The position numbers and the translations under genes are program-made. The notes under the pieces were generated by a model. It had not been told where the DNA came from. It saw only the letters and a list, made by a program, of their open reading frames with translations, and made no database searches. Below are positions 7,921-30,517 of a stretch of 64,000 nt of DNA, one piece after another (positions within the stretch are counted from its first letter, which is position 1; the number at the start of each line of letters is the position of its first letter). The DNA is from Chloroflexota bacterium (GTDB lineage Bacteria > Chloroflexota > UBA11872 > VXOZ01), in assembly GCA_964291655.2 (NCBI GenBank), contig OZ219802.1, positions 672,001 through 736,000 of the forward strand, read 5' to 3'.

Positions 7921-8018
7921 AGGCCATCGCATCCAACCAGCAGCAAGTCGACATGACTAACACTTCACGTAGTCTCAACTCCTTCGCCGCTCTCCCGCAG
8001 AGCTAGCAATTAAGTCAG

Positions 8019-9399: not shown

Positions 9400-9587
9400 C
9401 CATTCTCACCACACTAATGGATCGGCCCGGCCGCAGCGGGCGTATGCGCGCGCTCCCTCAACCAACGCTTGCCGTCCGCGCGGCTGCGCGGCCACACCGA
9501 CTGCTCTGATCACCGGCCTTAATCTCGCGACAACCTTCCTTACATGTTGCTCTAATCTTCCTCGGAGATACTGGATATGAGAAGAAA

Positions 9588-9887: not shown

Positions 9888-10909
9888 GCGTTGAAGAAGT
9901 CGAAGGCTTTGGCGCCGCTGAACTCGTGCCCGCCGTCGAATTCGTCGAGCCAGAGGCTTTCCGATACCTGCGCCGCCGCGTAGATGGTTTCCAAGTGTGC
10001 ATACGCCTCACGCGCGGCCGCAATCGGAAAGCCTCCGTCTTGTATGCCGGACTCGATGAGGAGCGCCCGCGGCGCTACTAAGCCGCAAACATCGGCCACT
10101 TCCGCATACTTGAGAATGCCGGGTACGAACTGCGATCCGCAAAAATTGCCCTGGGTGAGCGCATATTGCTTGAAGGTCGTCAAATAGCACACCACGTCAG
10201 CCGCTTTCACCCGCTCATCCACTGCCGCAAGGTACATTGCGCGTGTGCCGCCCAGCGAGAGCCCGATGCAACCAAGCCGGTCCGCGTCTACTTCCGGGCG
10301 GCTCGCCAGGTAGTCAAGACCTCGCATGTCGTCCCAGGTATTGAGGGCCATCAAGTTCATGCCAAGGAGAAAGGTCTTGATGCCGTTTACGTTGCAGCCG
10401 TCGCGGTTGCCGTACCGCCGGAAGTCTTCTCGGCGTTCGCCAAAACCACGCGCGTCGGGGCAGAGAGTGATGAATCCGCGCTTGGCGAGTTGTAGGCCGT
10501 AGTCGTAGTTGTAGCGCTTAATCAACTCCGCGCGTTCCTCTTCGCCATTGTCCACGTGTGCTACGGGATCTTTGCCGTACGGCCCCCCATGACCGTGCAA
10601 ACAGATGATGCCCGGTGCGGGTTGGTCCACGCCCTCTGGAATCAAAAGCCACGCCGGGACCTGAACGTCTTCAGCAGAGGTGTACACCACTTTCTCGTAA
10701 CGCACGCCGAACTGCTCGCGCTCTTCGACGACGCGGGCCTCCAACGGCACCTGCTCCGGAAACGGCTCCATGAGGTCAAGCAGCCGCGTCCGCAATTGCT
10801 TCTGCCACACGTACCACTCCTCACGACTCTCGCCGGCAAAGTGCATGAGAGGCGGGTGTTTTTCATAGTACGCCATCACGTACGTATCGAAGTCAAAGAC
10901 ATCGCTCAT
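9878..10909 (-). CDS. Alpha/beta hydrolase (dienelactone hydrolase / Abhydrolase_7-like)
   Basis: HGHGG, PDARGFGER, GLSLGG nucleophile elbow, C-terminal GGHEF. Confidence 0.88.
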   Translation of the reverse strand: MSDVFDFDTYVMAYYEKHPPLMHFAGESREEWYVWQKQLRTRLLDLMEPFPEQVPLEARVVEEREQFGVRYEKVVYTSAEDVQVPAWLLIPEGVDQPAPGIICLHGHGGPYGKDPVAHVDNGEEERAELIKRYNYDYGLQLAKRGFITLCPDARGFGERREDFRRYGNRDGCNVNGIKTFLLGMNLMALNTWDDMRGLDYLASRPEVDADRLGCIGLSLGGTRAMYLAAVDERVKAADVVCYLTTFKQYALTQGNFCGSQFVPGILKYAEVADVCGLVAPRALLIESGIQDGGFPIAAAREAYAHLETIYAAAQVSESLWLDEFDGGHEFSGAKAFDFFNAYL

Positions 10910-13449: not shown

Positions 13450-14714
13450 TGTACAGACTGGGCTGATAGGTAACAGGTGTTCGGGTTGATAGGTTACACA
13501 TTTTGTTCTCTGAGGTCTATGGTTTTGATGCGTTGTATTGAGAAGTGCACGTTCCAGATGCCGTCGGTTTGGGCAGGCCTGAGTGCGACCTGTTTGTGGG
13601 TGAAGGCCCTGCCCACACGGAGCCGTCTGCCCTGGAAGGAGATGCGACCGGAGACATCGACGCTGCGCACGTGGTCGTCAGGAGCGTAGTCGAGGGCAGG
13701 CAACGTCTCAGGGAAGGGGCGCGGACTAGGCGTGTATCTGGTGATGGGTGTGTCGAGATCGAGGGCATGATGGGGGCGTTCCAAGTTGTAGAAGTCGCGC
13801 CAGGTGTCGAAGGCGCCCTGGCAGTGCTCCAGGTCGGTGAAGCTGGTTCCTGCCAGCAGTTCGCTCTTGAGCGAGCGGTGGAAGCGTTCCAGCTTGCCGA
13901 GTGTCTGGGGATGATAGGGTCTACTGTGGAGCACGCTGATGCCCAGCTGCATGAGCCAGACGGTGAGGGGCGTAAAAGGCTGGGCACTGTCGTTGCCCCA
14001 GGGGGAGCCGTTATCCATGAGCATGGCCTGGGGCAGGCCGTAGCGCCGAAAGACAGTGGTGAGGCGGTCTTGAACCGTCTCTCCCCGCTCGTTGGCGCAG
14101 GCCTGTAAACCTAGGTTGAAGCGGGAATGATCGTCCAGGAGGGTAAGCGGATGGCAGCGGTTCTGCTGCATGACGAAATGTCCCTTGAAGTCCATCTGCC
14201 ACAGCTCGTTGGGCTGGGGTCGTTCGAAGCGCACATGGGGCGTGTGCTTGGCGCTCTGGGCTGGATCGATGAGCCCATGGCGTTTGAGAATGGCATTGAT
14301 GGTGCTCTTGGCCGGCACGTCGGTATGCCCCTGGTCCTGCAGCATTCTGCGCAGCACATGGGCGCCCTTCGTAGGATGCGCCAGACGCAGCGCGATGATG
14401 CGTTCCTCCATCGCCGGGCGCGTGCGGTGCGGACACGTGTGCGTGCGGTGCGAACGGTCACGCAGGCTCTGCGCTCCCCCCGACGCGTACCGCCGCAACC
14501 ACTTGTAGCCAGTCTTGCGGCTGATGTTGAACCGACCGCACAATTCGCTCATTCTCACCGCGCCACTATTGGCCAGAGCAATAAACTCTTCCCGGGCAGA
14601 CATAAGCGTTTCCACCTTCCACGACATGGTCATCCTCCCGCTGCAAGATTCTCCATGCCTATAGGTGTAACCTATCAACCCGAACAAGCGTTACCCATCA
14701 ACCCGGTCTATACA
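13450..14714 (-). mobile_element. Complete IS481-family element, 1265 bp
   Basis: TGT...ACA ends; 25-bp TIRs (TGTACAGACTGGGCTGATAGGTAAC vs TGTATAGACCGGGTTGATGGGTAAC); inner 22-bp inverted repeat TGTTCGGGTTGATAGGTTACAC; 6-bp target duplication AGCCCT at 13444-13449 and 14715-14720. Confidence 0.96.
13494..14627 (-). CDS. IS481-family DDE transposase
   Basis: N-terminal HTH (ISRKTGYKWLRRY), WQMDFKG, LDDHSRF, MDNG, HPQTLGKLERFH, YNLERPH; GGGAGG RBS. Confidence 0.96.
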   Translation of the reverse strand: MSWKVETLMSAREEFIALANSGAVRMSELCGRFNISRKTGYKWLRRYASGGAQSLRDRSHRTHTCPHRTRPAMEERIIALRLAHPTKGAHVLRRMLQDQGHTDVPAKSTINAILKRHGLIDPAQSAKHTPHVRFERPQPNELWQMDFKGHFVMQQNRCHPLTLLDDHSRFNLGLQACANERGETVQDRLTTVFRRYGLPQAMLMDNGSPWGNDSAQPFTPLTVWLMQLGISVLHSRPYHPQTLGKLERFHRSLKSELLAGTSFTDLEHCQGAFDTWRDFYNLERPHHALDLDTPITRYTPSPRPFPETLPALDYAPDDHVRSVDVSGRISFQGRRLRVGRAFTHKQVALRPAQTDGIWNVHFSIQRIKTIDLREQNV

Positions 14715-14911: not shown

Positions 14912-15775
14912 TTAGCGTTCCTCCTGGTCCCACGAGACGTGTACGCGGAGCGAGCGGATGATCTGGTCCAACGCATAGCCGATGACGCCAATAATGAGAA
15001 TGACGGCCATGAGCTCACCGTAGTTGAAGCGGTCGCGCGTATCCAGAATGTAGTAGCCCAGGCCATCGGAAACGCCCAACATCTCCGCGGGAACCAAGAC
15101 GACCCAGGCGAGACCCACCGCCAAACGGAGCCCGGTAAGCATGTCCGGGACAATCGCAGGCAGGATGACCATGCGCACAAGCTTCCACTCGTTGGCGCCC
15201 AGGGTGCGCGCTGCCCGAATCCAGCGCTGGTCCAGACTGCTCACACCATGAGCCGAATTGATTATCATCGGCCACACCGCAGCAATGGCAATCAGGAAGA
15301 TGACGGGATTGCTCCCTACACCAAACGCGATAATCGCAATCGGCATCCAAGACAACGGCGAAATCATGCGGATGAACTGGAAGGCGAGCGTAGAAGCTCG
15401 TTCGGCCGTCCGGTAGTGGCCGATGATGACGCCAATCGGCACCCCAATTGCGACCGCTAGAGCCAATCCCAACCCAATGCGCTCTAAGCTTGCAACGATG
15501 TGGGAGTAAATGACACCGCTGACAAAGAAGCCCACGAGCTCGCGAAAGGCGTTGCGAGGTTGGAACGCCATCACGATGCCGGAGTCAGTCAGCAGACCGC
15601 CTGTAAGCACCTGCCAAAAGAGCAGGATGACGAGGAAGCCTATGACTGGTAGGCCTATGCGGCGTACTTGCACCCACCAACGGCTGGCAGCCGGCTCCGA
15701 AACGCTCCTCGCCGTCGCGGAGCCGGAGCGCTTTTCGTCGCGAGCGGGTTCGGCCAGCCGTCCTTCCGTGCGCAT
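14912..15775 (-). CDS. ABC transporter permease, TauC/SsuC/NrtB type
   Basis: SL.RI..G, ISPLSWMP, AARTLGA (EAA loop), VPAEMLG...GLGY. Confidence 0.92.
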   Translation of the reverse strand: MRTEGRLAEPARDEKRSGSATARSVSEPAASRWWVQVRRIGLPVIGFLVILLFWQVLTGGLLTDSGIVMAFQPRNAFRELVGFFVSGVIYSHIVASLERIGLGLALAVAIGVPIGVIIGHYRTAERASTLAFQFIRMISPLSWMPIAIIAFGVGSNPVIFLIAIAAVWPMIINSAHGVSSLDQRWIRAARTLGANEWKLVRMVILPAIVPDMLTGLRLAVGLAWVVLVPAEMLGVSDGLGYYILDTRDRFNYGELMAVILIIGVIGYALDQIIRSLRVHVSWDQEER

Positions 15776-15779
15776 GGCC

Positions 15780-17018
15780 TCACTCAATGCCGATGATCTC
15801 CTTGCGCTCGAACGCTTGCTCTTCCGCAATGTTGAACGCGGCAGGGCCGCCGGCGGCGTTATAGGCTTCTCTAACCAGCGTATACTCTACCAAATCTTCC
15901 GCCGCGTGATCGCCTGAGAGATCGCCCAAGAAGCTGGTGTCGCCTTCTACCTTCGTCTGCTTGATTTGATTTACAAGCTCTATGGTATAGGTCGGATACG
16001 GCCACGGCTGGAAGCCAATCCGTGACGCGCCCCACTCCGGATGGTGGATGGCATTCGTGCCCTGCGGGCCATAGGTCTCTAAATCGTACTTGCTCATGGC
16101 ACGTTCGATTACATTGGCGGCCTGCGGCAGGAGTCCACTGCCGTCCTTCGAAAGTAGCTGCGCCGTACCGGGAATGTCCTTGAGCGCCCCAAGCTGAGCT
16201 TTGGCAATGCTGTTCAGCACACGCTGCGCCCACTCTGGGTTCTCATTGATGTATTTCTCGCTCAGCACCGCCACGCAGCACGCATGGTCCTTCCAGATGT
16301 CACCCGTGAAGCGGATAATCTTCCCGTTTGCGAGCAACTCACCGGCAGCGTTGAATGGCTCCGCCACGATATAGCCGTCAATCGATCGGTTACCAAGCGC
16401 AGTCGGCATGTCCGGCGGCGCCATCACGAAGAGATTCACCTGATTGCCGGCGAGCTCTCGATTGCGGTCTTGAATGACGGCCTCTAGGTTATGGTGGCGC
16501 AGTGCCATCTGCAAGACGACATTGTGGATCGAATACCAGAACGGCACGGCAATTTGCTTGCCACCCAAGTCCTTGATGCTATCAATACCGCCCTCTTGAT
16601 GCACGGTCAGCGCCGAGCCATTGATGTGGTCCCAGGCAACCACTTTGACGGGAAAGCCTATGCCGTAGCGCATCCATACCGTCATCGGCATCAGAAAGTG
16701 CGCCACATTCACCTGGTCCGCCATGAACGCTTCGGCAAGCTGCGACCAGCCGCGGAAGAGCGCGGGTTTTTCAGCATTCAAGCCCTCATTGGCAAAGTAG
16801 TCGCCAGCATATCCAAGCGTAAGCGGCGTGGAGTCCGTAATCGGCAAGTAGCCAACTTTTACGGGTATGTCCGCAACCTTTGAGGGGCTCACCGGCCCGC
16901 CACTCGCGCTTTCTTCTTCGTCACCGCCGCAGGCGCCGAGCAGCGGACTGGCAACAGCGCCGAGAGCCACGGCGCCAAGCGTATTCAGGAATTGCGCCCG
17001 CGTAATCTGCTTTGACAT
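15780..17018 (-). CDS. ABC substrate-binding Tat-like lipoprotein, NrtA/CmpA/TauA-like
   Basis: TRAQFL...LLGAC signal; VGYLPITD, NGSALTV, AVPFWYSIHN, YIVAEPF, HACCV. Confidence 0.9.
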   Translation of the reverse strand: MSKQITRAQFLNTLGAVALGAVASPLLGACGGDEEESASGGPVSPSKVADIPVKVGYLPITDSTPLTLGYAGDYFANEGLNAEKPALFRGWSQLAEAFMADQVNVAHFLMPMTVWMRYGIGFPVKVVAWDHINGSALTVHQEGGIDSIKDLGGKQIAVPFWYSIHNVVLQMALRHHNLEAVIQDRNRELAGNQVNLFVMAPPDMPTALGNRSIDGYIVAEPFNAAGELLANGKIIRFTGDIWKDHACCVAVLSEKYINENPEWAQRVLNSIAKAQLGALKDIPGTAQLLSKDGSGLLPQAANVIERAMSKYDLETYGPQGTNAIHHPEWGASRIGFQPWPYPTYTIELVNQIKQTKVEGDTSFLGDLSGDHAAEDLVEYTLVREAYNAAGGPAAFNIAEEQAFERKEIIGIE

Positions 17019-17271
17019 TTTCAGTTCTCCCTTAGAGTGGGTCTGTGTCTATTCTTTATAACAAGAAAACTTCGTACTCTAGATCGCCCCGGTAGCTGCG
17101 GTCAGTGAACTCGCGACCTCCCGAACCAGAATTCCATTAGGTCACCTGCTCCCCAACGGACGTATTCTCCGGTGCATGACCGCAATAGTAGACTTACAAC
17201 AGAGTTCTTGGACAACTCCCTGATAGAGCTTGCGAGTAGGCTGAGGTGTGTACGGCATTATTTGAAAGTCC

Positions 17272-18087
17272 CTAGATGTGATAGTACTGTTCGCGTGTGT
17301 GCGCGAGATTGAACTCGGTAAAGACTTCCTCACGCAAGCGCACGAGCTGCGGGTCAACACGATCGCGCGGGTGAGCAATGGGCACCGGGATGATCCGCCG
17401 CAACTCGCCGGGATGCGCGGACATGATTGCCACACGATCGCCAACATATAACGCTTCGTCAATGTCATGCGTCACGAAAACAGTGGTCACGCGTTGCGCC
17501 TTTACGATGCGCACGATTTCCTCTTGCATTTCCATGCGCGTGAAAGCGTCGAGCGCGCCGAAGGGCTCATCCATAAGCAAGATCTCCACCTGATTGGCGA
17601 GCGCGCGCGCCAATGCGACGCGTTGCGCCATGCCACCGGAGAGCTGCGCCGGCCGCGCCCGTTCGAATCCCTGCAAGCGGGTGAGTGCCACCAGGTCCGC
17701 AACTATCGTCTGCTTGTCGCCCCTGAACCTGCGCGCGTCGAGACCGAAACGAATGTTCTCCTCGACCGTCAACCAAGGAAAGAGCGCATAGTCTTGAAAG
17801 ACCATGCCTCGTGTGTAATGCGGGCCTGCTACCGGTTCGCCCGCTACAGTGACGCTCCCGTGGGAAAGCTGATCTAGTCCCGCAACGATGTTAAGGAGCG
17901 TCGACTTGCCACACCCACTCGGCCCCAACACGCAGAGCAACTCGCCCTCATGCACAGAAAGGCTCACGTCCTGGAATGCCACCGTGTCGCCGTGCCGCGA
18001 GCCGAACACTTTTGAGGCGCCCTCGAGCACGATCCGTGCTTCTGGGGAGGAAACGTCGCCGACGTCTTGCGCTACTAATCTCGCCAC
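17272..18087 (-). CDS. ABC ATPase, TauB/SsuB/NrtD type
   Basis: GPSGCGKS, LSGGM, LLMDEPFGALD, FVTHDIDEA; GTG 18087 or TTG 18114 start. Confidence 0.93.
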   Translation of the reverse strand: MARLVAQDVGDVSSPEARIVLEGASKVFGSRHGDTVAFQDVSLSVHEGELLCVLGPSGCGKSTLLNIVAGLDQLSHGSVTVAGEPVAGPHYTRGMVFQDYALFPWLTVEENIRFGLDARRFRGDKQTIVADLVALTRLQGFERARPAQLSGGMAQRVALARALANQVEILLMDEPFGALDAFTRMEMQEEIVRIVKAQRVTTVFVTHDIDEALYVGDRVAIMSAHPGELRRIIPVPIAHPRDRVDPQLVRLREEVFTEFNLAHTREQYYHI

Positions 18088-18262
18088 TAGAACGCCCTGC
18101 TCTCGCTGCAACAACCACGAATGTACGCGTGCAATCTAAACTTTACTAAGTAACTTTATTTAGATAAGATATTAACTAAGTAGCATAGTGAGAAACCGAT
18201 GTCAAACTACACCGGTTCGTATAGAATGTATGCGGTAGCGTTTCACTTTCCGGAGGCTCTCG

Positions 18263-18619: not shown

Positions 18620-18766
18620 GCCTCTGTTGTAATTCCTCTGCTTGGGGTGGCAATGCCCATTTGAGAAGTGGTTTGGACCACGGCAAGTCTGCCAAATACG
18701 AATGGATTTTCTGTTGCCGATTCGCTGAATTGGCTGAGTAATGTAGATGTGAGACGAGGTGTACCC

Positions 18767-19006
18767 ATGAGCGGAAACACGCACATATCCAAATGGGGTA
18801 CCAGTCTAGCCATTCGCATTCCTAAGGCAATTGCGCAACAGTGGGGCGTTCGAGAGGGATCTGCAATCGAGATCATCTCGCGTGGCGATCACGTTGTCCT
18901 GCGCAAGGAGACCTATAACCTTACCGAAATGCTGGATCAGGTGACGGACGACAATCTCCACTCCGAACAGAATATCGGCCCGATCCAAGGCAATGAGGAA
19001 TGGTAG
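18767..19006 (+). CDS. mazE: AbrB/MazE antitoxin
   Basis: KWGTSLAIRIP...G..IEI...YNL.EML..VT..NLH.E...G...GNEEW. Confidence 0.9.
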   Translation: MSGNTHISKWGTSLAIRIPKAIAQQWGVREGSAIEIISRGDHVVLRKETYNLTEMLDQVTDDNLHSEQNIGPIQGNEEW

Positions 19007-19380
19007 GTGCTGACTATGTTCCTGCCAGAGGGGAGATTGTCTGGCTGCGCTTCACTCCTCAATCCGGGCGCGAACAGGCCGGTCACCGTCCCGTACTGGT
19101 TCTGAGCCCTGCGACCTACAACGAGAAAACCGGCCTTGCGCTGTCTTGCCCTATTGCGTCAACAGTCAAGGGATATTCCTTTGAAGTCGTTCTTCCCTCC
19201 ACAGGTGGGGTAACCGGCGTCGTGCGCGCCGATCAAGTCAAGAGCCTCAACTGGCGGGCAAGGCGTGCTCGCTTTGCGTGCCGGGCTACGCGGTCCCTGC
19301 CGAGAACGAGCTCAAGTCGTCAGCGAGGTCCTAGGCAAGATCAACGCGCTCTTACAGTAATGAACCCTGCAGGTTCATGA
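19000..19380 (+). pseudogene. mazF: MazF/PemK toxin, frameshifted C-terminus and catalytic Thr substituted
   Basis: YVP.RG.IVW..F.PQ.GREQAGHRP, DQVKSL.WRAR; native-like tail QVVSEVLGKINALLQ* (stop 19358-19360) lies in another frame. Confidence 0.75.
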
Positions 19381-21711: not shown

Positions 21712-22527
21712 ATGACGTCCGAGAACGAGAGAGTCCTCGACCACCGCGCGGTTGGCGAACTCTGGGACGAGAATGCCGAAGCCTGGACCACGCTCACCCG
21801 CCTCGGCTACGACAAGTACCGCGACCACATCAACACGCCGGCCTACATGGAGATGCTGCCCAACGTGGTGGGGCTGCAGGGGCTTGACGTCGGCTGCGGC
21901 GAGGGCCACAATACGCGGCTGGTCGCGCAACGCGGCGCGCATCTAACCGCCTTGGATATTTCCGGCCGCTTTGTGGACTACGCCCAGGAGCGAGAGACGG
22001 AAGAGCCATTAGGAATCACCTATCTGCGCGCCAGCGCAGTGGATTTGCCTCTGGCCGACGCCGGCTTCGACTTTGTCATGGCCACTATGAGCATGATGGA
22101 CGTGCCGGACCAGCACCGAGCTGTCCGCGAAGTGGCGCGCGTCTTGAAGCCGGGCGGCTTCTTCCAGTTCTCGATTCTTCACCCTTGCTTCATGACACCC
22201 CGCTTTAAATGGGTGCTCGATGAAGCAGGGCGACGCGTCGCTATGGAGTGCGGTGACTATTTCAAGACGGAGCAAGGCACCATCGAGGAGTGGATATTTG
22301 GGTCTGCCCCTGACGAATTGAAGGAGCGTTACAAGAAATTCCGCATCCCGCGCTTCTTCCACACCTTGAGCACATGGTTGAACATGCTACTCACAGCCGG
22401 ACTCGTCATCGAAGAGAGCGCCGAGCCGTACGCCAGCGACGAGTCCATCGCAATCTATCCCAGCCTCGCCGCCACCCGCGTCATCGCCTGCTCCCTCCAC
22501 CTCCGCTGCCGGAAACCATCACGGTAG
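21712..22527 (+). CDS. Class I SAM-dependent methyltransferase
   Basis: LDVGCGEG, LDIS, FDFV, RVLKPGG.F.FSI.HPCF; GGAGG RBS. Confidence 0.92.
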   Translation: MTSENERVLDHRAVGELWDENAEAWTTLTRLGYDKYRDHINTPAYMEMLPNVVGLQGLDVGCGEGHNTRLVAQRGAHLTALDISGRFVDYAQERETEEPLGITYLRASAVDLPLADAGFDFVMATMSMMDVPDQHRAVREVARVLKPGGFFQFSILHPCFMTPRFKWVLDEAGRRVAMECGDYFKTEQGTIEEWIFGSAPDELKERYKKFRIPRFFHTLSTWLNMLLTAGLVIEESAEPYASDESIAIYPSLAATRVIACSLHLRCRKPSR

Positions 22528-22610
22528 AGGAAAGCGCAGCAGTCGCCAAGGCGCAAAGAAAGGGGAAGCTCTACGTTTCGCAGTGCATAGGACGCGCGCG
22601 CGGTGAAGAC

Positions 22611-22981
22611 CTAGCCGCTTTCAAAGCTCGGCTTGGTGCGCTGGCGCGCTCCAGGGGTGCACGCATACGCCTGCACCACTTCGCCATCCACAATGTGCTC
22701 TGCCACGATGCGGTCCACGGCGGCCTCGTCCACGCCGCCGTACCACGTGCCATCGGGATGCACCACCATCATCGGCCGAGATCGCAGGGATTGAGACAGC
22801 CCGTGCGCGCCGCCATCAATACACGCCTCTTGCCCCACAACCGGCACTCCCTGACCTTCGCCTCGAAATACTCCCACAACGCCGGGTCATTCTTGCATTT
22901 TGCGGCGGGACCAATGACAGAGCAATACTTGGCCGTGGGCAGTGGGAAGAATTGCACGTACCGGCGGTTGGTTTGTTTCAA
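22611..22981 (-). pseudogene. Decayed duplicate of the thioredoxin-like [2Fe-2S] ferredoxin domain of 24525-25361
   Basis: Near-identical PALWEYFEAKVRECRL...RTGCL.PCDLG / MMVVHPDGTWYGGVDEAAVDRIV split across frames; 1-nt deletion near 22775; VLLC motif in a third frame. Confidence 0.85.
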
Positions 22982-23056
22982 GCACCGGTACGTGCTTCAA
23001 CCTTGAACCACTCTCCCCTGTCGCAGTCCCGGTAGGCTACGCACCTTCTTCTTCGT

Positions 23057-24079
23057 CTACTCGGGATAGAAACCGTTCGCCAGCGTTTCAATGGCGTCAA
23101 CGGTGCGAATGCCCGCCTGCGTGGCCGTGAAGAGCACATCCACGAAGTGCTTGTTCTGCACTGCCTTGATGGAGGAAAGCGCCTCGGTGCTCTCCAAGTA
23201 CGCTCTCTTCTCTGCAGCCGTAGACCATCCTGGGGCATCGAGCAGCACGATGACGTCGGGGTCTCGCTCGACCACGGTCTCCCAGTTCACTGACCCGAAG
23301 AGACCTTCAACGTCAGCAAATATGTTGACCCCACCTGCCTCTTCGACTATCGCATTCACAATGCCCGAACCAACCGCGGCGTACGGCGTATCATCACCAC
23401 TGTCATAGATGAAGACTGAAACCTTCGGATCGGCAGGCGCCGTCTTGGCGCGGATGTCCGCTAAGCGGGCCCGCAGCCCGTAGACGTACTCTTCAGCACG
23501 CTCCGTAATCCCAAAGATCTGCCCGATTTTCACAAAGTCCTCGAACACGTCCTCAACGGTCACCTTGCCCTCTTTGCAGTTGGAGGCCGTCATGTACGAC
23601 GCTATGCCGAGATCCAAAAGCGAATCGCGCGGCCCTGCCACATCTTCACGAGTGAAGGCGCTTACAAAGGCAGCGTAAATGAAGTCGGGCTCCGCTCCCA
23701 GAATGACCTCATGTGAAGGATATTTCTCGGCAAGTACCGGAATCTGCTCGTATGCCGCCTGGAGATCAGGGGGCATCGAGTCTCTGAGGAACGCCGTGCC
23801 AACCATGCTGTCTTCCAAACCCAACGCCAGCATCAATTCCGTCGTTTGCTGAGATAGACTAATGGCGCGCTGCGGCGGCTGGTCGTACGTAATGGTAAAG
23901 CCACAGTTTTCGATGGTCACCGGCGTGAAAGCAGTTTCGGCTTCTTGGGCCGGTTCTGCCGGCTCCGCCACCGGTTGCGGTACGGCTACCGTGCCACAAC
24001 CAGCCAGCAAGAGACTACCCGCGCCTGCCACTCCGATGGCGAGAAGGCTACGACGAGTCATGCGCTGAGAATAGATCAT
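23057..24079 (-). CDS. Class III (FecB/BtuF-like) ABC substrate-binding Tat lipoprotein, copy 2
   Basis: TRRSLL...LLLAGC; PVTIENCG, PPQRA, E.ML.LGL...MVGTA, AGG.NIFAD, V.WE.V..R.PDVIV. Confidence 0.9.
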   Translation of the reverse strand: MIYSQRMTRRSLLAIGVAGAGSLLLAGCGTVAVPQPVAEPAEPAQEAETAFTPVTIENCGFTITYDQPPQRAISLSQQTTELMLALGLEDSMVGTAFLRDSMPPDLQAAYEQIPVLAEKYPSHEVILGAEPDFIYAAFVSAFTREDVAGPRDSLLDLGIASYMTASNCKEGKVTVEDVFEDFVKIGQIFGITERAEEYVYGLRARLADIRAKTAPADPKVSVFIYDSGDDTPYAAVGSGIVNAIVEEAGGVNIFADVEGLFGSVNWETVVERDPDVIVLLDAPGWSTAAEKRAYLESTEALSSIKAVQNKHFVDVLFTATQAGIRTVDAIETLANGFYPE

Positions 24080-24132
24080 CTCCAACTTCCTTTCCGATTC
24101 TACACGAGAGCTTCTCACACGCACTCCCATCT

Positions 24133-24186
24133 TTATTGGGAATGCGTTTCATTAACATTAAACAGGGTGTGGGTATGCCTTGTCAA
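24133..24186 (-). promoter_or_regulatory. Sigma70 promoter (TTGACA-18-TTTAAT) followed by a Fur-family-like box
   Basis: -35 at 24186-24181, -10 at 24162-24157; box TTAATGAAACGCATTCCCAATAA at 24155-24133. Confidence 0.6.
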
Positions 24187-24387
24187 GGGCCGCGCCATGC
24201 TAACCGGAGTAGTCCGATTCTTGCCGAGAGTGCAGGCTGCTTATGCGTCCAATGGCGCCAGGTGAGCAGTGCGCCGGTGCCCTTGGCAGCGTGGTCCATT
24301 GGGCCGCAACCTTCGGCGTCCTCGCGATGCATCCCTAGCGCAAGGCCCCGCCATCGGGCGTAGGCAGCAATCAGTCTAAATTACAAT

Positions 24388-24417
24388 AAAAAAGCCCTGT
24401 TCCCTAGAGAACAAGGC
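24388..24417 (-). terminator. Rho-independent terminator after the CbiX-ferredoxin gene
   Basis: GCCTTGTTC-loop-GAACAGGGC followed by T6 on the minus strand. Confidence 0.7.
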
Positions 24418-24524
24418 GTCACTTGGATCATAGAGTCGAGCCGTTTACCGGCGGTTTGCCTCAGCGGTCGTAATCAACCATAGCTTTAGATTTTCGGTTC
24501 ACGGCGTCTGCCCGACGGCGAATA

Positions 24525-25361
24525 CTAGCTGCCTTTCGTCCCCGGCTTGCGCCGAGCCAGCGCGCCGGGAGTGCACGCATACTCCTGCACCACTTCGCCA
24601 TCCACAATGTGCTCAGCCACGATGCGGTCCACCGCGGCCTCGTCCACGCCGCCGTACCACGTGCCGTCGGGATGCACCACCATCATCGGGCCGAGATCGC
24701 AGGGATAGAGACAGCCGGTGCGGACCATCATCACGCGCTGCTTGCCTCGCAACCGGCATTCCCTGACCTTCGCCTCGAAATACTCCCACAGCGCTGGGGC
24801 ATTCTCCAGCGTGCAGCGCGGTCCGCTGCAGAGGAGCACATGATGCCGATGGGAGGGTAAGTGATTCCAGGAGCGCCGCCGCTCCTCTATCGTGGGATCC
24901 TCACGCACATCCGTAAAGGAGCGAGCATCCATGACGGCAGCGCTAAAGGCGTCTGCCAGGTGTGCGCTATCGCCCAATGGCGGTGCGAGCGCGACCTCCA
25001 CGTCAGCATCCGCATGTTCGCGCAGCCAGTCGCGCAGCGCGAGGGGCAGCCACCAGCGCAGCGTGCGGTCCATGGGCACGAGACCCGGCACCACCAGGAG
25101 GCGGCGGGCCCCTGCGGCGAGACTCTGTTCGAGCACGGCCGACAGCGCCGGCTTGCCCTGCTCCAGGAACGCGTAGCGCACAGCGCGAAAGCTACCGGCA
25201 CGGGCCACCGATGCGACCAGCCGTTCCAGTTCCTGGCGCGGGGCCGCGCCATAGCCGCCGCGGCCCACGATAACGACCGTGTCAAACGGTACGCCGTTGG
25301 GCTCCGTTTGGGTCTCAGGGGACAAGACGTCTCCATCTTGTTCGCTGTGGCGGTCTGCCAT
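24525..25361 (-). CDS. CbiX/SirB-fold domain fused to thioredoxin-like [2Fe-2S] ferredoxin
   Basis: N-terminal VVIVGRG...AFLEQGKP.L...LVVP...APPLG; C-terminal CSGPRC...TGCLYPCDLGP..VVHPDG.WY. Confidence 0.82.
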   Translation of the reverse strand: MADRHSEQDGDVLSPETQTEPNGVPFDTVVIVGRGGYGAAPRQELERLVASVARAGSFRAVRYAFLEQGKPALSAVLEQSLAAGARRLLVVPGLVPMDRTLRWWLPLALRDWLREHADADVEVALAPPLGDSAHLADAFSAAVMDARSFTDVREDPTIEERRRSWNHLPSHRHHVLLCSGPRCTLENAPALWEYFEAKVRECRLRGKQRVMMVRTGCLYPCDLGPMMVVHPDGTWYGGVDEAAVDRIVAEHIVDGEVVQEYACTPGALARRKPGTKGS

Positions 25362-25393
25362 GGCGCGCTACCTATACACGTTGCGCAAGGGAC

Positions 25394-26242
25394 CTAATCC
25401 ACACCAACCATCACAGATGCTGCCGGCGCTCCGTTGCTGGATGCCGGCGCCCCATTGGTGGCTGCCGGCGCCGCGGCGTGGGCGGGAAGGTAGACAATAT
25501 GGAGTTTGCCGGTGCGGGGGTGTATCTGCACCTCGGCATCTACACCAAACACGTTGCGAATGAGCTCAGGTTGCAACACCGCCTCCGGCGAGTCTGCCGC
25601 TACGATCCGTCCTGCTGCAATGATGTAGATGCGGTCGCAGTAGGCTGCGGCCAGATTGAGATCGTGCAGCGCCGCGAACGTCGTCACCTGCAAGCCGCGC
25701 ACCAGATCCAGAATCTCAAGCTGATAGCGCACGTCCAGATGGTTCGTGGGCTCGTCCAGCACGAGGAAGCGGGCCTGCTGGGCCAGGGCGCGGGCAATCA
25801 ACACGCGTTGCTTTTCACCGCCGGAGAGCGTGGCGAAGCTGCGTTCGGCAAAGTCCAACATGCCCACCTGCGCCAGCGCGCTTTCCACCAGGGCATGGTC
25901 TTCATCGGTTTCGCGGGAAAACATCTTCTTGTGAGGCGTGCGTCCCATGAGCACCATCTCCCACACCACAAAATCAAACTCCCCGGGAGATTCCTGCAGC
26001 ACTGCCGCCGTGCGTCGGGCCGCCTCGCGCGGGTCGAGCTTCCAAACGTCGTCGCCGTTGAGCGAAATGTAGCCGGCATCCGGCTTGAGCGCGCGATAAA
26101 TCGACCGCAGCAAGCTCGACTTGCCGCTGCCGTTCGGGCCCAGGATACCGACGAATTCACCGGCGCCGACCTCGGCGCCGACCTCTTGCAGTATCGGTTG
26201 CGAGTCTACGCTCCAACTAACATCTTCAACACGGAGGTTCAT
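25394..26242 (-). CDS. Fe-chelate/cobalamin ABC ATPase (FecE/BtuD-like)
   Basis: GPNGSGKS, MGRTPH, LSGGEKQR, LDEPTNHLD, HDLNLAA.YCD. Confidence 0.93.
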   Translation of the reverse strand: MNLRVEDVSWSVDSQPILQEVGAEVGAGEFVGILGPNGSGKSSLLRSIYRALKPDAGYISLNGDDVWKLDPREAARRTAAVLQESPGEFDFVVWEMVLMGRTPHKKMFSRETDEDHALVESALAQVGMLDFAERSFATLSGGEKQRVLIARALAQQARFLVLDEPTNHLDVRYQLEILDLVRGLQVTTFAALHDLNLAAAYCDRIYIIAAGRIVAADSPEAVLQPELIRNVFGVDAEVQIHPRTGKLHIVYLPAHAAAPAATNGAPASSNGAPAASVMVGVD

Positions 26243-27357
26243 GTTCTGCCTCCTCCAAATGCATCTTTGCGTCGCCGCATTAACCATAGAAAGAACGGTC
26301 CGCCGAGAAACGCCGTAATGACGCCAAGGGGCATCTCTTCCGGCTGCACAACCGTGCGTGCGAGCACGTCAACCCAAACCAGAAAGATCGCCCCGGCCAG
26401 CAGGCTCACCGGCAAGACGCGGCGGTGGTCCGTACCGACAAAGAGGCGCACGGTATGGGGCATCATCAGTCCCACAAAGCCAATCGCGCCGGCCAACGCC
26501 ACCATGACGCCGGTCATCATTGCCGCCACCACCATCAGCACCCGCCGGAAACGATTCGTATCCACACCCAGGCTCACGGCCGTTTCCTCACCCGCCACGA
26601 GGGCATTCAACGGTCGCGCCTGCAACACCAAGTAAACGGTACCGATGAGGAGCACCAGCAGCGGCAGCGTGAGATAGCTCCATTTTGCGCCGGCCACACT
26701 CCCCATCAGCCAGAAGAGCACCGAGCGAATGCCCTCAGCCTCGTCGGCGCGAAACACCATGAAGCTCATCGTAGCCGATAAGACATAGGACAACGCAACT
26801 CCTACCAAGATGAGGCGCACGGGCGAGAGTGTGCCCCGGTGCTGCGCCAGCGTGAGTACCACGATGAACGTGAGTACCGCTCCCAGGAAAGCAGCAACCG
26901 ACAGCGCATAGATACCTAAGAACTGGAAAACGCCGAACAGAATCACGAGCACGGCACCCACGGAGGCTCCGGAAGAGACACCCAATATATACGGGTCGGC
27001 CAGCGGATTGCGCACCGTCGCCTGCATGGCAACCCCCACAACCGCGAGCCCTGCGCCGACGACGGCCGCCAGCAACACCCGGGGAAACCGGATCAGCCAC
27101 ACGATGTTTTCGTGGGCGGCCGACCATTCGCCGGAGGCCAGCCCCGTCAGGCGGGAGACGGCAATCTGCCAGACCGTCAACGGTGCGATGGCTACCGGGC
27201 CGATGGTAACTGCGAGTGTGAGTGAAAACAGCAGCGCCACCAGCAAGCCGAGCACCACGACAGGAAAGCGCGCGTCCCACCGCCGACCGGGCGCGCGTTC
27301 TTGTGCCGGGCCCGCCGCAGTCGGCGACCGCGTCGGTCTCTCCGCAACTGTGGCCAT
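26239..27357 (-). CDS. FecCD/BtuC-family ABC permease
   Basis: IRFPRV, Q...RNPLADPYILG.SSGA, GEETA.SLG, IGFVGL..PH, E.P.G..TA..GGPFF. Confidence 0.94.
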   Translation of the reverse strand: MATVAERPTRSPTAAGPAQERAPGRRWDARFPVVVLGLLVALLFSLTLAVTIGPVAIAPLTVWQIAVSRLTGLASGEWSAAHENIVWLIRFPRVLLAAVVGAGLAVVGVAMQATVRNPLADPYILGVSSGASVGAVLVILFGVFQFLGIYALSVAAFLGAVLTFIVVLTLAQHRGTLSPVRLILVGVALSYVLSATMSFMVFRADEAEGIRSVLFWLMGSVAGAKWSYLTLPLLVLLIGTVYLVLQARPLNALVAGEETAVSLGVDTNRFRRVLMVVAAMMTGVMVALAGAIGFVGLMMPHTVRLFVGTDHRRVLPVSLLAGAIFLVWVDVLARTVVQPEEMPLGVITAFLGGPFFLWLMRRRKDAFGGGRT

Positions 27358-27442
27358 TGCTGTTCTCCGTCTATAGTCTGTTCTTCACAAAGCATCTCGA
27401 TGATGCTGCACAGTTATGTAAGGGGGTTGCCGGGTCCCGCCG

Positions 27443-28420
27443 CTATGGAGACCTCCCCCAACCCCTTTTCTTCCCGATCCAAAACACGACACCGGCTACG
27501 GCCAAGATCAAGGCCAAGGCAGGCAGCCCCAACAGCGCTGTATTCCATCCGCTTCTCATTCCGTTGACCTCAACCGGCGAGGAGTCTCCCCTATCGTAAG
27601 CTTCGCGTAGCAGGGTCACCGGGTTCTGCTCCCCAGCACGTTGCGCTGGAACAGTCAGCCACCGGCTTAACGAGTCTCCTTGTTCGCTGGTACGCGCTAC
27701 CGCGACGAATGCGGTAAGGGCCGTTTGCTCGCGGGGACACCGTTTGTCGCCGCCTTCCCCAGCGCCGGCCTCAAGAGCGGCGAGCAATCCATCAGCAAGG
27801 ACGGCGTCAGGCTGTTTCATCACCTCTTCGAACGCTTCCAACGCCGCGCTGACCACTGCCGGTCCCACCAGAATGTTCCCTTGGGCCGAGATGGATGGGC
27901 CACTGACCGCACCGGCCCAGTCAAGGTTCCCGCTCCCGGTGAAGTTTGCCGCTCCGTGAGCCAGCGTGGCGACGCCGTACTGCCTCGTATCCGGAGAGGA
28001 ATCACCCGAGCTAGCTGCAGCAATCGCATCTTGAGGTGAAGCGCCGGCCAGCAAGCTACTCGCAACCCTATCGATCCGCTCGGTGTTTTGCGGATCACCT
28101 TGCGCCTGCGCTGCAATTGCACCATGTCCGGGCAGCAGGCGGGCCAGTTCGATATCACCAAGCGAGGAGTCGATATATACGTGATATATCATTCGCCCCG
28201 CATCATCCCCGGACCCGCCGGCTGTCGCTAACAATCGAGAGTTCTCAGGCACACAGGTGGCCAGCGCAACACCCACTTCGGCAGCTTCTGCGTCGACAGC
28301 AACAATGGACCAGGTGCCTGACGAATATTCATTAGTAGGGGCTATAGTCCCAGCGCCGCAGCCGGTAGTCAACAAGAGCGCGATAGCGACGCGCGCGACC
28401 CGAGCAGGCTTCACAGTCAT
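27443..28420 (-). CDS. DUF1028 (Ntn-hydrolase-like) protein with lipoprotein signal and C-terminal TM anchor
   Basis: TWSIVAVD...GVA, G.GAIA.QA, RQYG, FTG...WAG, QGNIL, AL.AG...GGDKR; LLLTTGC; hydrophobic tail + KKR. Confidence 0.8.
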   Translation of the reverse strand: MTVKPARVARVAIALLLTTGCGAGTIAPTNEYSSGTWSIVAVDAEAAEVGVALATCVPENSRLLATAGGSGDDAGRMIYHVYIDSSLGDIELARLLPGHGAIAAQAQGDPQNTERIDRVASSLLAGASPQDAIAAASSGDSSPDTRQYGVATLAHGAANFTGSGNLDWAGAVSGPSISAQGNILVGPAVVSAALEAFEEVMKQPDAVLADGLLAALEAGAGEGGDKRCPREQTALTAFVAVARTSEQGDSLSRWLTVPAQRAGEQNPVTLLREAYDRGDSSPVEVNGMRSGWNTALLGLPALALILAVAGVVFWIGKKRGWGRSP

Positions 28421-28470
28421 ACCACCTTGTCCTCGGTGTCCTACTCTAATGCAAACACGCCCTAGCCGGC

Positions 28471-29487
28471 TTATGCCGGGTAGAAGCCCTTGAACAACGT
28501 TTCAATGACATCGATACTGCGGGGCCCCGGCTGGGTGGCCGTAAAGGGCACAACGACATAGCGCTGGTCCTGGATAGCCTTGATCGATGCGAGCGCCTCG
28601 GAATTGGCGAGGAACTCGCGCTTCTCGTCCGCTGTAGACCAGGTTGCGTCGTGCAGCACGATGACGTCCGGATTTCGTTCGATAACGGACTCCCAGTTCA
28701 CCGTAGCAAAGTCGCCATCAACGTCCGCGAAGATGTTGATGCCACCGGCCTCTTCCAGCAGGGCATTCACGATGCCTGTACCGGCGGCCGTATACGGCGC
28801 TTCGTTGTCGCTGTCGAAGACGAAAACCGTGACCTTCGGATCCGCCGGTTGTGTCTTCGTGTGGATTTCCGCCAACCGCTCCCGGATGCCGGCTACATAG
28901 GCTTCCGCACGCTCCGACACACCGAAGATTTTGCCAATACTTAAGAAGTCAACAAATACGTCCTCGATGGTGGCCTTGCGTTCCAGGCAATTTGCCTGGG
29001 CAACATATGAGTTTATGTTCAGTTCCAACAAGGCCTCGCGCGGGCCAGCCACCTCATCGCGGAAGGCGCTCACCCAACCGGCGTAGAGGAAGTCTGGTTC
29101 CACTCCCAAGAACACCTCTCGGGAAGGGTATAGTTCCGAGAGCACAGGTATCTGTTGGTAAGCGTCAGCGAGATTGGGCAAGATTGGGTCTTCCAGGTAC
29201 GCCGTGCCGACCATGTGGTCCTGCAACCCCAACGTCAACATCACTTCAGTGGCGTGTTGTGCCATGGCTACGGCGCGTTGCGGCGGCTGTTCGTACGTTA
29301 TGCTCACGCCACAATTCTCAATCGTGACCGGCGCGAACGTCGACTCGGCCTCTTTTTCTGGCATAGCTACTGCGGTCTCTGCCGGCTGCGATGTGCCAAC
29401 GCCGCAGGCGGCTAGGAGCAGGCCGCCGGTTCCCATGGCGCCAAGGGCCAAAATACCGCGGCGAGTCAACTGCTGCTTTCTGTTCAC
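28471..29487 (-). CDS. Class III (FecB/BtuF-like) ABC substrate-binding Tat lipoprotein, copy 1
   Basis: TRRGIL...LLLAAC; close paralogue of 23057-24079; GTG start after GGGAGAGG. Confidence 0.9.
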   Translation of the reverse strand: MNRKQQLTRRGILALGAMGTGGLLLAACGVGTSQPAETAVAMPEKEAESTFAPVTIENCGVSITYEQPPQRAVAMAQHATEVMLTLGLQDHMVGTAYLEDPILPNLADAYQQIPVLSELYPSREVFLGVEPDFLYAGWVSAFRDEVAGPREALLELNINSYVAQANCLERKATIEDVFVDFLSIGKIFGVSERAEAYVAGIRERLAEIHTKTQPADPKVTVFVFDSDNEAPYTAAGTGIVNALLEEAGGINIFADVDGDFATVNWESVIERNPDVIVLHDATWSTADEKREFLANSEALASIKAIQDQRYVVVPFTATQPGPRSIDVIETLFKGFYPA

Positions 29488-29518
29488 TTTTATGCCTCTC
29501 CCAAAGTTAACACTAATC

Positions 29519-29589
29519 ATAACGACAAGCGTTATCAATAAGTTAATGATAACTATAGTCATTAAAGGGAAAGTCTTCCGGCTTGTCAA
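29519..29589 (-). promoter_or_regulatory. Sigma70 promoter (TTGACA-17-TTTAAT) overlapped by tandem Fur-family-like boxes
   Basis: -35 at 29589-29584, -10 at 29566-29561; imperfect palindrome TTAATGATAACTATAGTCATTAA at 29543-29565; second box at 29519-29541. Confidence 0.7.
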
Positions 29590-29843
29590 GGGGGATTGGA
29601 CAAAGCGCAGATTTTTTTGAAAGGAAATTGCCGCCAACTGAAGCCTACAAGTCACAGACTTAGTGGATCTGCGAGCGTCTTCAATGCAAGTGAGGGTCAG
29701 ATTTGCGGGACCAATCTCAAAGAACCGTGTGTTAGTCTAGATAGAGATCGCACCTGCATCCCGGAAGTGCGTTCCAAGCTGCGGCATCTCGCAGCCAGTG
29801 TGCTGCCAATTTGGGCAATGCGCACCCAAAGAGATCCCTTGGG

Positions 29844-30374
29844 CTAGGTGGGATTGCCGGCGGGATACAGGAACGGCACCCAGGACTCGTGAGGCGGTGA
29901 AGGCACGTAGCGGAGATGGGCAAGGTAGCCGTTGAGCCGTGGCTTGCCTGGCCTCGCCAACAGACGCATGCGCGCTTCTTCGGCCGTGCGGCCGCCTTTG
30001 CGGTGGTTGCAGTCCTTACAGGCGGAAACGAGGTTCTCCCAGGTGTGCCCGCCGCCACGGTGGCGAGGCATGACGTGGTCTATCGTGAGTTCCCGTGCTT
30101 GCACCCCGCAGTACTGACACGTATGGCTATCGCGGCGAAAGACCTCCTGGCGGACCAATCGAGGCCCGGTGGGGGGCCGCTTGACTAAGTAATGCAGTTT
30201 GATCACTGAAGGGCGTGTATAGCGGGCTTCGGCTGATATTAAGTCATCCGCGTACTGTTCGACTACTTCCGCCTTGCCGGTGAGCAAGAGCACGAACGCC
30301 CGCCGCACGTTGCAGATATTCAGCGGTCGATAGTCAAGATTCAATACCAGAACACGCTTGTTAATGCTGTTCAT
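29844..30374 (-). CDS. HNH endonuclease (McrA-like, conserved chromosomal type)
   Basis: VLVLN..Y.PL, RD...CQYCG...LTIDHV.PR.RGG...WENLV.AC..CN..KG. Confidence 0.93.
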   Translation of the reverse strand: MNSINKRVLVLNLDYRPLNICNVRRAFVLLLTGKAEVVEQYADDLISAEARYTRPSVIKLHYLVKRPPTGPRLVRQEVFRRDSHTCQYCGVQARELTIDHVMPRHRGGGHTWENLVSACKDCNHRKGGRTAEEARMRLLARPGKPRLNGYLAHLRYVPSPPHESWVPFLYPAGNPT

Positions 30375-30517
30375 TGCGGGCCACACTTACCAGCAACCGG
30401 TCGTGTTCTTGACCATCGTTTTGTTGGCGGTTAAGCTACGGAACATTCACCTCCGGCAATGCTAAAACCTGCCTCTTGCCTGTATTCTAGCTGGAACCAA
30501 ACACGTTCACAATACCG

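Follow-up and report, generated by a model that had tools for sequence, protein, structure and literature searches.

A CbiX-fold ferredoxin encoded with a FecCD-type importer in a Chloroflexota bacterium, and the case for a corrinoid cargo

What would a protein that joins a CbiX-type chelatase fold to a [2Fe-2S] ferredoxin do at the end of a metal-chelate importer operon? The question is raised by a stretch of 64,000 nucleotides from a Chloroflexota bacterium (assembly GCA_964291655.2, contig OZ219802.1, positions 672,001 to 736,000), which we call the window. On its minus strand, genes for a class III substrate-binding protein (SBP1), a DUF1028 lipoprotein, a FecCD-family permease, an ATP-binding cassette (ABC) ATPase and the CbiX-fold/[2Fe-2S] fusion (FUS) follow one another, and the gene for a second binding protein, SBP2, lies behind them. 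A preliminary description of this DNA had taken the locus for an iron-type system, in which FUS would replace the chelate reductases FhuF and ViuB. Its observation of the locus is partly confirmed, being largely right, and an imported metal chelate may indeed be handled reductively; the metal, in our analysis, is more likely to be cobalt held in a corrin. FUS proved to be a conserved partner of FecCD-type importers, and a good part of the homologous loci stand under cobalamin riboswitches or among cobaltochelatase genes. We therefore read the locus, at a probability of roughly one half, as a Btu-like ABC importer for a corrinoid (cobalamin, another cobamide or cobinamide), with FUS handling or reducing the cargo.

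The fusion protein and the loci that carry it

FUS consists of a CbiX-fold domain followed by a thioredoxin-like [2Fe-2S] ferredoxin domain, both above their Pfam cut-offs, and it should be cytoplasmic because it has no signal peptide. Foldseek searches with an AlphaFold model (mean predicted local distance difference test score, 78) returned the Aquifex thioredoxin-like ferredoxin 1m2d, with a template modelling (TM) score of 0.82 on the target, and the small chelatase CfbA/CbiX(S) 6m28 (TM 0.73 on the target, E 4e-6). Cys178, Cys183, Cys217 and Cys221 are invariant in all 25 sequences aligned, and they are the predicted ligands of the cluster. As judged from the alignments, both of the catalytic, metal-binding histidines of class II chelatases have been lost. 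The VGHGS motif of CfbA aligns to VGRGG in FUS, with Arg34 in the place of the catalytic histidine, and the second CbiX histidine, present in 3lyh, is replaced by threonine. Arg34 is invariant in an alignment of 10 sequences and present in at least 90% of the set of 25. Relatives of 400 amino acids have two CbiX repeats ahead of a ferredoxin domain, with the histidines in repeat 1 and a FUS-like GRG motif in repeat 2, which makes FUS the equivalent of the non-catalytic half plus the ferredoxin.

The family is large and goes by generic names. We found 38 FUS homologues, ranging from close to distant, and a profile searched against 1.84 billion representatives had 8651 matches at E<=1e-3, 2429 at 1e-10 and 122 at 1e-30. 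Source databases call its members '(2Fe-2S) ferredoxin domain-containing protein', 'NADH:ubiquinone oxidoreductase' or 'ferredoxin', and the nearest ESM Atlas cluster is labeled 'Thioredoxin-like [2Fe-2S] ferredoxin/CbiX domain-containing protein'. Full-text literature searches found no paper characterizing a fusion of CbiX to a thioredoxin-like ferredoxin; their one lead was a ferredoxin-like gene in a btu operon of Anabaena, taken up below. When the 13 longer representatives among the 150 listed were scanned with Pfam, eight proved to have a PCuAC metallochaperone domain added to the CbiX-like and [2Fe-2S] domains (P0179, P0180, P0188, P0196, P0205, P0206, P0208 and P0222), a combination suggestive of metal handling in the family. 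Separately, the FUS homologue of locus L011 (10001-10788) matches as two segments meeting at 10300, pointing to a frameshifted copy.

The preliminary description had proposed that an importer works with a cytoplasmic partner combining a ligand-binding fold and a [2Fe-2S] domain, and a neighborhood search bears this out. A scan of GTDB species genomes yielded 68 FUS loci (L001 to L068) in Chloroflexota and in Alpha-, Beta- and Gammaproteobacteria; those nearest to the window are from Chloroflexota metagenome-assembled genomes. Counting permease neighbors by tblastn matches of at least 80 bits, we found that 50 of the 68 loci have a FecCD permease no more than 2.5 kb from FUS (on the strand of FUS in 45, on the opposite one in five), and that 57 have one within 10 kb. 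Eleven loci have none within 10 kb, six of them on short or cut contigs. FUS is thus a conserved partner of FecCD-type importers. The pairing spans two phyla, and its carriers include the culturable Bosea, Chelatococcus asaccharovorans, Polaromonas and Variovorax. Gene contents were obtained by calling the open reading frames (ORFs) of high-GC loci with a codon-position GC filter and then scanning 125 neighboring proteins from 11 loci with Pfam. Proteobacterial loci show strings of TonB receptor, binding protein, permease, ATPase and FUS.

The homologous loci also point to a regulon. Rfam searches at the gathering threshold, covering 48 of the 68 loci, found the cobalamin riboswitch RF00174 in 11 (L015, L016, L021, L032, L035, L041, L044, L045, L048, L049 and L066), the other 37 being negative. 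A B12-box regular expression run on all 68 was positive in 25; each of the seven positives that had also been scanned with Rfam was confirmed, and four weaker Rfam matches were missed by the expression. Together, the two methods place a cobalamin riboswitch in at least 29 of the 68 FUS loci. In 24 loci it precedes FUS on its strand, within 400 nt in nine of them; in four it lies just downstream of FUS and before the transporter genes, and in one it is solely on the opposite strand.

A tree of FUS sequences (64 rows, midpoint root; L011, L055, L057, L067 and L068, whose best segments fell below 180 amino acids, are not in it) has riboswitch-bearing rows on both sides of its deepest split, 11 of 17 in the Dehalococcoidia and 17 of 33 in the Proteobacteria. 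The window clade, L012-L014 and the Dehalococcoidia clade make up one Chloroflexota group with a Shimodaira-Hasegawa-like approximate likelihood ratio support of 100. Between the window and the Chloroflexota loci L012-L030, identity is 59-68% for the permease, 55-62% for the ATPase and 40-54% for the binding protein. Riboswitches within L012-L030 are confined to the Dehalococcoidia subset, and L012-L014 are negative.

In nine of the 17 Dehalococcoidia loci (L015-L018, L020-L022, L025 and L028), genes for a CbiE-type methylase, the cobaltochelatase subunit CobN and a DUF7676 protein precede a FUS-binding protein-permease-ATPase series, and in eight of the nine a gene for a ChlID-type cobaltochelatase subunit follows downstream; the remaining locus, L028, is cut short. 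In L016, NCBIfam matches exceed the cut-off for CobN (TIGR02257, 1279 bits against 822), for TIGR02442 (805 against 779) and for CbiE (121 against 93). Six of these loci (L015, L018, L021, L022, L025 and L028, at about 500-4200) have a second FecCD importer, about 40% identical, which adjoins the CobN/FUS/importer cluster on the opposite strand and has a cobalamin riboswitch of its own. The preliminary description had named in advance what would count against it, namely homologues in cob/cbi operons under B12 riboswitches. Such homologues are what the search returned, and the framing of FUS as an iron-chelate reductase in the role of FhuF is not supported by them.

Bosea-type loci have one riboswitch before nrdA-nrdB-FUS and another before a TonB receptor-binding protein-permease series. 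As a separate observation, FUS is the last gene of that riboswitch-controlled nrdA-nrdB-FUS operon (L031, L032 and L042, at about 5450-10750; Pfam assigned the domains of L032). The [2Fe-2S] ferredoxin YfaE of E. coli occupies the same position relative to nrdA-nrdB.

Candidate cargoes of the importer

The window encodes a class III binding protein, a FecCD permease and an ATPase together, with PF01497, PF01032 and PF00005 all above their cut-offs, and named families say less about what these proteins carry. On NCBIfam, the best match of the binding proteins is TIGR03868 (249.8 bits for SBP1 and 255.0 for SBP2, against a cut-off of 392.4). The permease scores 324.1 on TIGR03869 (cut-off 437.35), with the BtuC model PRK09535 second (273.7; cut-off 461), and the ATPase scores 302.6 on TIGR03873 (cut-off 372.4) and 269.7 on the corrinoid ABC transporter ATPase model PRK09536 (cut-off 537). 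The BtuF model PRK03379 gives 36.1 bits for SBP1 and 44.6 for SBP2 against a cut-off of 234, and the BtuD model PRK03695 gives 113.6 against 281. Against the siderophore model EitA, both binding proteins score higher (126-128 bits) than against BtuF. Solved relatives do not supply the ligand, since the closest chains (4mlz, 4n01, 4ljs and 5cr9) are all generically named binding proteins. According to an excerpt of PMC2667541, BtuFCD proteins are not separable by sequence from their iron and haem homologues, and regulation by B12 elements was used for identification.

It is on the same kind of evidence, the B12 riboswitches of the FUS family elsewhere, that we consider cobalt corrinoids more likely than iron. 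In L016 and L066, the transporters under riboswitch control match the same NCBIfam models as those of the window, TIGR03868 and TIGR03869, and BtuC is the next-best model of the L016 permease just as it is of the window permease. A riboswitch-controlled operon in L049 also has two binding proteins. What the window clade imports, and all that FUS does biochemically, we infer from comparisons of this kind. SBP1 and SBP2 would capture related ligands outside the cell, and the FecCD permease and the ATPase would bring the ligand in. FUS, probably a dimer like the small CbiX and CfbA enzymes, would take the cargo into a chelatase-fold cleft that lacks the metal-inserting histidines. Its [2Fe-2S] cluster might then reduce the cobalt, from Co(III) to Co(II) or Co(I), or FUS might otherwise pass the cargo on to adenosylation or remodeling.

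Several observations weigh against a corrinoid cargo. The transporter proteins fall under every BtuF, BtuC and BtuD equivalog cut-off, and their best model is that of a hypothetical 'F420-0' transporter. No riboswitch was detected in the window clade L001-L011, either by Rfam in the nine loci scanned or by the regular expression in L009 and L010, so the window's own link to B12 runs solely through its homologues. Across the family, 39 of the 68 loci, several on short contigs, are without a riboswitch by Rfam or regular expression. No B12 genes were found in the 64-kb window, and hence no CobN near the operon. In L051, FUS stands behind an importer that is TauT/Ssu-type by Pfam (at the matching place in L052, tblastn shows an ABC ATPase alone). 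Finally, the relatives with a PCuAC domain and the transporter genes beside CobN fit a role with free metal or a cobalt chelate equally well or better.

How the window operon is regulated bears on its cargo as well. The SBP1 promoter has TTGACA at 29589-29584 and, after a 17-nt spacer, TTTAAT at 29566-29561; the SBP2 promoter repeats both hexamers (TTGACA at 24186-24181, TTTAAT at 24162-24157), the spacers of the two being 17-18 nt. SBP2 itself is 60% identical to SBP1 over 344 amino acids, in agreement with the earlier claim of a second binding protein behind a similar promoter. The hexamers of both promoters are kept in L001-L011, although the SBP1 promoter of L010 is cut, leaving the -10 alone to be seen. 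Just downstream of the -10 region, both promoters have the inverted repeat TAATGA-N9-TCATTA: at 29544-29564, where it is perfect, and 29520-29540 for SBP1, and at 24134-24154 for SBP2. With up to two mismatches allowed, the motif occurs four times in the window against 0.68 expected, a number reached in none of 100 shuffles, and three of the four matches are in the two promoters. Ten of the 11 relatives have it at their SBP1 promoter, and L006, L007 and L010 have it at SBP2 promoters; the background in other loci is 16 matches in 966 kb. From this enrichment and the recurrence at promoters of relatives, we conclude that the two promoters share a real operator.

The preliminary description had called these sites Fur-family-like boxes. 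A common palindrome of 6-9-6 spacing is indeed present at both promoters, and its arms, TAATGA and TCATTA, occur within the Fur consensus. The classical 7-1-7 consensus TGATAATnATTATCA, however, is not enriched: it has two matches at three mismatches in the window, the best at 29547-29561, and nine of 100 shuffles do as well. The Fur-like label is therefore unproven. In the leader of SBP2, a further conserved inverted repeat, CGCATTCC-N12-GGAGTGCG (about 24100-24150, minus strand), overlaps the operator-like repeat at 24134-24154, and it also lies between tandem SBP2 copies in L006, L008, L010 and L011, where no -35 or -10 is visible. Its eight predicted pairs, one with a compensatory change, leave it undecided between an RNA hairpin and a DNA operator. 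No riboswitch was found in the window at the Rfam gathering threshold, and a search of 22400-30000 for a degenerate one found none at E values up to 5, its single match, MEG3_2 (E 4.3), being a chance hit. The simplest reading is that the window clade comes from a B12-regulon system whose riboswitch was replaced by a sigma-70-type promoter with the TAATGA-N9-TCATTA operator; given that exchange, a protein repressor is to be expected.

A change of substrate at the time of riboswitch loss is possible in the window clade. Iron is one candidate: the operon would then take up a ferric siderophore or haem, controlled by an iron repressor of the Fur family or of another kind, with FUS as the ferric-chelate reductase that stands in for FhuF or ViuB. 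The missing riboswitch fits such a change, as do the conserved AT-rich palindrome just past the -10 of both promoters, whose arms fall within the Fur consensus, and the EitA scores of the binding proteins. Several binding proteins per permease are common in siderophore systems, and the TonB receptors of some FUS loci score best on siderophore-receptor models (L044, 221 bits on TIGR01783). That L044 receptor, however, is itself under a B12 riboswitch, the classical Fur box is not enriched, and the operator has 6-9-6 spacing in place of 7-1-7. FUS of the window keeps every family-invariant residue of its B12-regulon relatives in the alignment of 25, and the permease shares 59-68% identity with those of L012-L030, among them the riboswitch-controlled ones of Dehalococcoidia. 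No FhuF or SIP domain appears among the Pfam matches of nine window proteins at E values up to 0.01, and no siderophore biosynthesis gene was found in the window. We consider a conversion to iron unlikely.

It is about as improbable, in our judgment, that the cargo contains cobalt outside a corrin. In that case the importer would carry a non-corrin cobalt complex, and FUS would reduce or strip it and send the cobalt on to a CobN-type chelatase, which is the mechanism of the preliminary description with cobalt replacing iron. The Dehalococcoidia speak for it. There CobN precedes the transporter and FUS in nine of 17 loci, eight of them with a ChlID-type gene downstream, and the second FecCD importer of six loci, with its own riboswitch, could be the true BtuFCD. 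The eight PCuAC fusions fit as well, together with a cation-efflux gene that adjoins FUS in L056, a CsoR/RcnR-type repressor near FUS in L033, and binding proteins closer to the siderophore binders of the EitA model than to BtuF. Yet the chelatase-fold domain lacks its metal-binding histidines, the window operon has no CobN nearby, and a TonB receptor with a FecCD importer under a B12 riboswitch, as in the Proteobacteria, is the classical layout for cobalamin uptake. We also know of no FecCD-type importer of cobalt chelates.

Import of F420-0, a deazaflavin precursor, is very improbable: the hypothetical equivalogs TIGR03868, TIGR03869 and TIGR03873 are the best NCBIfam matches of binding protein, permease and ATPase, and genes for luciferase-like oxidoreductases adjoin FUS or transporter genes in L035, L044 and L056 (by Pfam) and in L063 (by tblastn), but none of the three proteins reaches its curated cut-off (250-255 against 392, 324 against 437, 303 against 372), relatives with the same model profile stand under cobalamin riboswitches and not under F420-linked control, and the family name is itself a gene-neighborhood hypothesis.

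If the corrinoid reading is right, its interest extends beyond this locus. The processing of corrinoids after BtuCD (reduction, decyanation and hand-over to an adenosyltransferase) is poorly known beyond a few model systems. FUS is a concrete and testable candidate for this step because it is paired with an importer in 50 of 68 loci, has a riboswitch in at least 29 of 68, and combines a histidine-less chelatase fold with a redox cluster. A wider proposal, which we put forward tentatively, would make FUS a widespread accessory of the B12 regulon: a dedicated [2Fe-2S] receiver and reductase of corrinoids or cobalt chelates, docking to Btu-type importers and serving CobN as well in SAR202-type Dehalococcoidia. 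In the window's sponge-type Chloroflexota clade, control would have been rewired from riboswitch to protein repressor, with cassettes of binding proteins exchangeable according to the corrinoid. FUS would then do what flavodoxin, CobR, PduS or CblC does elsewhere.

Local architecture of the window operon

Seen against its homologues, the window itself holds an ordinary uptake operon of this type to which a local insertion, a recombination scar and a predicted repressor site have been added (Table 1). Two features that the preliminary description had reported, the gene order on one strand and a terminator after the fusion gene, are as it gave them: the ORF listing and Pfam agree on the order from SBP1 to FUS, and the hairpin and its T run are read from 24417 to 24394.

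Table 1. Features of the importer locus, listed from the SBP1 promoter in the direction of transcription. Positions are those of the window.
Feature	Position	Strand	Evidence
SBP1 promoter	29520..29589	-	-35/-10 hexamers and two operator-like inverted repeats; sequence reading, relatives
SBP1, class III (Peripla_BP_2) binding lipoprotein	28471..29487	-	Pfam 75.5 bits
DUF1028 (Ntn-hydrolase superfamily) lipoprotein, C-terminal membrane anchor	27443..28420	-	Pfam PF06267 105.4 bits (cut-off 26.2)
FecCD-family ABC permease	26239..27357	-	Pfam 328.5 bits
ABC ATPase, FecE/BtuD type	25394..26287	-	Pfam ABC_tran 109.3 bits
FUS, CbiX-fold/[2Fe-2S] fusion, 278 aa	24525..25361	-	Pfam CbiX 42.8 bits (cut-off 22), 2Fe-2S_thioredx (PF01257) 30.0 bits (cut-off 24.8)
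Intrinsic-terminator-like hairpin and T run, after FUS	24394..24417	-	Sequence
SBP2 promoter	24134..24186	-	Sequence, conservation, motif match
SBP2, paralogous class III binding lipoprotein	23057..24079	-	Pfam 85.7 bits
Perfect 11-bp inverted repeat GCACGTACCGG / CCGGTACGTGC, 3' of SBP2, cassette junction	22954..22995	-	Sequence
Ferredoxin-domain pseudogene, remnant of FUS	22611..22893	-	Alignment; direct repeat with 24525-24805

The binding-protein genes probably start inside longer frames. For SBP1, whose longest ORF is 28471-29655, the probable start is a GTG at 29487, which stands behind the ribosome site GGGAGAGG and aligns with the ATG of relatives; for SBP2, with a longest ORF of 23057-24130, it is at 24079. 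Both have twin-arginine-like leaders (TRRGIL in SBP1) and a lipobox, which in SBP1 reads LLLAACG.

The DUF1028 protein was described from the outset as anchored, and its two ends agree with this: a lipobox (LLLTTGCG) stands at the N terminus, and a hydrophobic segment followed by a basic tail at the C terminus. Its subfamily (269 matches, the best at 95% identity) retains both, together with an invariant TWSIVAVD motif in which Thr36 takes the position of the N-terminal nucleophile (Ntn); the sole solved relative is 2imh. Its place in the operon is another matter. DUF1028 occurs in none of the 68 FUS loci, and tblastn found no counterpart in L001-L011. By blastn, six of these 11 closest relatives (L001-L004, L007 and L011) have no counterpart of window 28462-27373, and in them the SBP1 stop abuts the permease start, which identifies the gene as an insertion. 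Its codon-position GC (0.66/0.56/0.62) is somewhat atypical beside neighbors at 0.62-0.74/0.42-0.49/0.66-0.77. DUF1028 is thus best seen as a lineage-specific insertion, a local accident outside the system, and the suggestion that it trims the chelate as an extracellular hydrolase finds no backing in the relatives. A 79%-identical DUF1028 homologue and an 87%-identical FUS homologue are each on an 8499-bp contig, a hint that some unsampled relatives also carry DUF1028 in the operon.

Downstream of SBP2, a decayed copy of the ferredoxin segment had been noticed, and the alignment confirms it: the remnant matches the 3' end of FUS with 242 matches, 38 mismatches and four gap columns (85%), and indels of +1, +3 and -1 leave no frame that reads through. 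It was found in the window only, in none of the relatives compared. At the nucleotide level it is 85% identical to FUS of the window and 88-90% to FUS of L001 and L002. From 22893 to 21698 the window is collinear with the FUS 3' end and methyltransferase gene of L001, L002 and L004, all of which lack SBP2, while from 24440 to 22917 it is collinear with the intergenic region and SBP2 of L003, L007 and L011; homology to SBP2-bearing relatives stops at 22917-22931. Because these two segments follow different relatives, the SBP2 cassette can be placed between direct repeats of a ferredoxin-coding segment. Cassette number varies, with none in L001, L002 and L004, one in L003, L005, L007 and L009, and two in L006, L008, L010 and L011. 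The remnant is most plausibly a recombination scar, either the footprint of a cassette gain or an intermediate of loss, and its identities of 85-90% to all candidates do not settle the direction. A joint duplication of ferredoxin domain and binding protein, as first proposed, does not fit: the remnant goes with relatives that lack SBP2, and the binding-protein paralogues, at 60% amino acid identity, are far older than a remnant at 85% nucleotide identity.

The rest of the window, with a GC content of about 59%, holds housekeeping genes, among them a trp operon and genes for TrpRS, SmpB and an H+-pyrophosphatase, and one transposase of the IS481 type. That transposase gene (13494-14687, minus strand; rve, HTH_32 and LZ_Tnp_IS481 domains) adjoins an NMT1/BPD/ABC importer of the TauT type at 14912-18114. 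A MazE-like antitoxin ORF at 18668-19006 (plus strand) overlaps an ORF of 126 amino acids at 19000-19380, and the two may form a toxin-antitoxin pair, in which MazE was the sole family match. Immediately 5' of SBP1 is a gene for a stand-alone HNH endonuclease (29844-30386, minus strand), with an HNH domain that matches the IscB model below cut-off (75 bits). The HNH protein is 87-96% identical in 10 of the 11 relatives (L010 is cut), a conservation equal to or better than that of the transporter-operon proteins.

Relation to known systems

The locus resembles BtuFCD, with or without the receptor BtuB, in its class III binding protein, FecCD-type permease and ABC ATPase, in having BtuC as the second-best permease model, and in the RF00174 elements upstream in homologous loci, to which the proteobacterial ones add a TonB-dependent receptor. 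It differs in scoring under the Btu equivalog cut-offs, in the lack of a riboswitch in the window clade, and in the up to three binding-protein genes per permease seen in FUS loci. The Btu system of E. coli has no counterpart of FUS. A possible one is encoded in Anabaena sp. PCC 7120, where, in the excerpt of PMC10878165 that describes it, the cobalamin-riboswitch-controlled operon alr4027-btuB2-alr4030-btuF-btuC-btuD includes a ferredoxin-like protein, Alr4030, between the receptor gene and btuFCD, its function being left open there. The likeness to FUS is one of description, and the 120 listed matches of the FUS profile search include no cyanobacterial protein.

The best named family for all three transporter parts, the 'putative F420-0 ABC transporter' of TIGR03868, TIGR03869 and TIGR03873, is matched below cut-off throughout; it is an actinobacterial family with a hypothesized ligand. 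FhuF and SIP/ViuB are like FUS in concept: all are small redox proteins of the cytoplasm whose genes accompany those of a chelate importer, and FhuF carries a [2Fe-2S] cluster as well (excerpt of PMC8068687). They are unrelated to FUS in sequence and fold; the cluster domain of FUS is thioredoxin-like, and its context is the B12 regulon.

In the fold of its CbiX domain, FUS resembles the class II chelatases. It shares the architecture of CbiX(S) and CfbA, and the long CbiX(L) and SirB enzymes, which have Fe-S clusters, likewise join a chelatase to an Fe-S domain. The 400-amino acid proteins with two CbiX repeats and a ferredoxin, which resemble the mainly archaeal Atlas cluster 'cobalt chelatase thioredoxin', share its GRG motif in their second repeat. 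FUS is set apart from these proteins by its single repeat, and from the class II chelatases by Arg34 and a threonine in place of the histidines and by a gene that stands beside those of a transporter.

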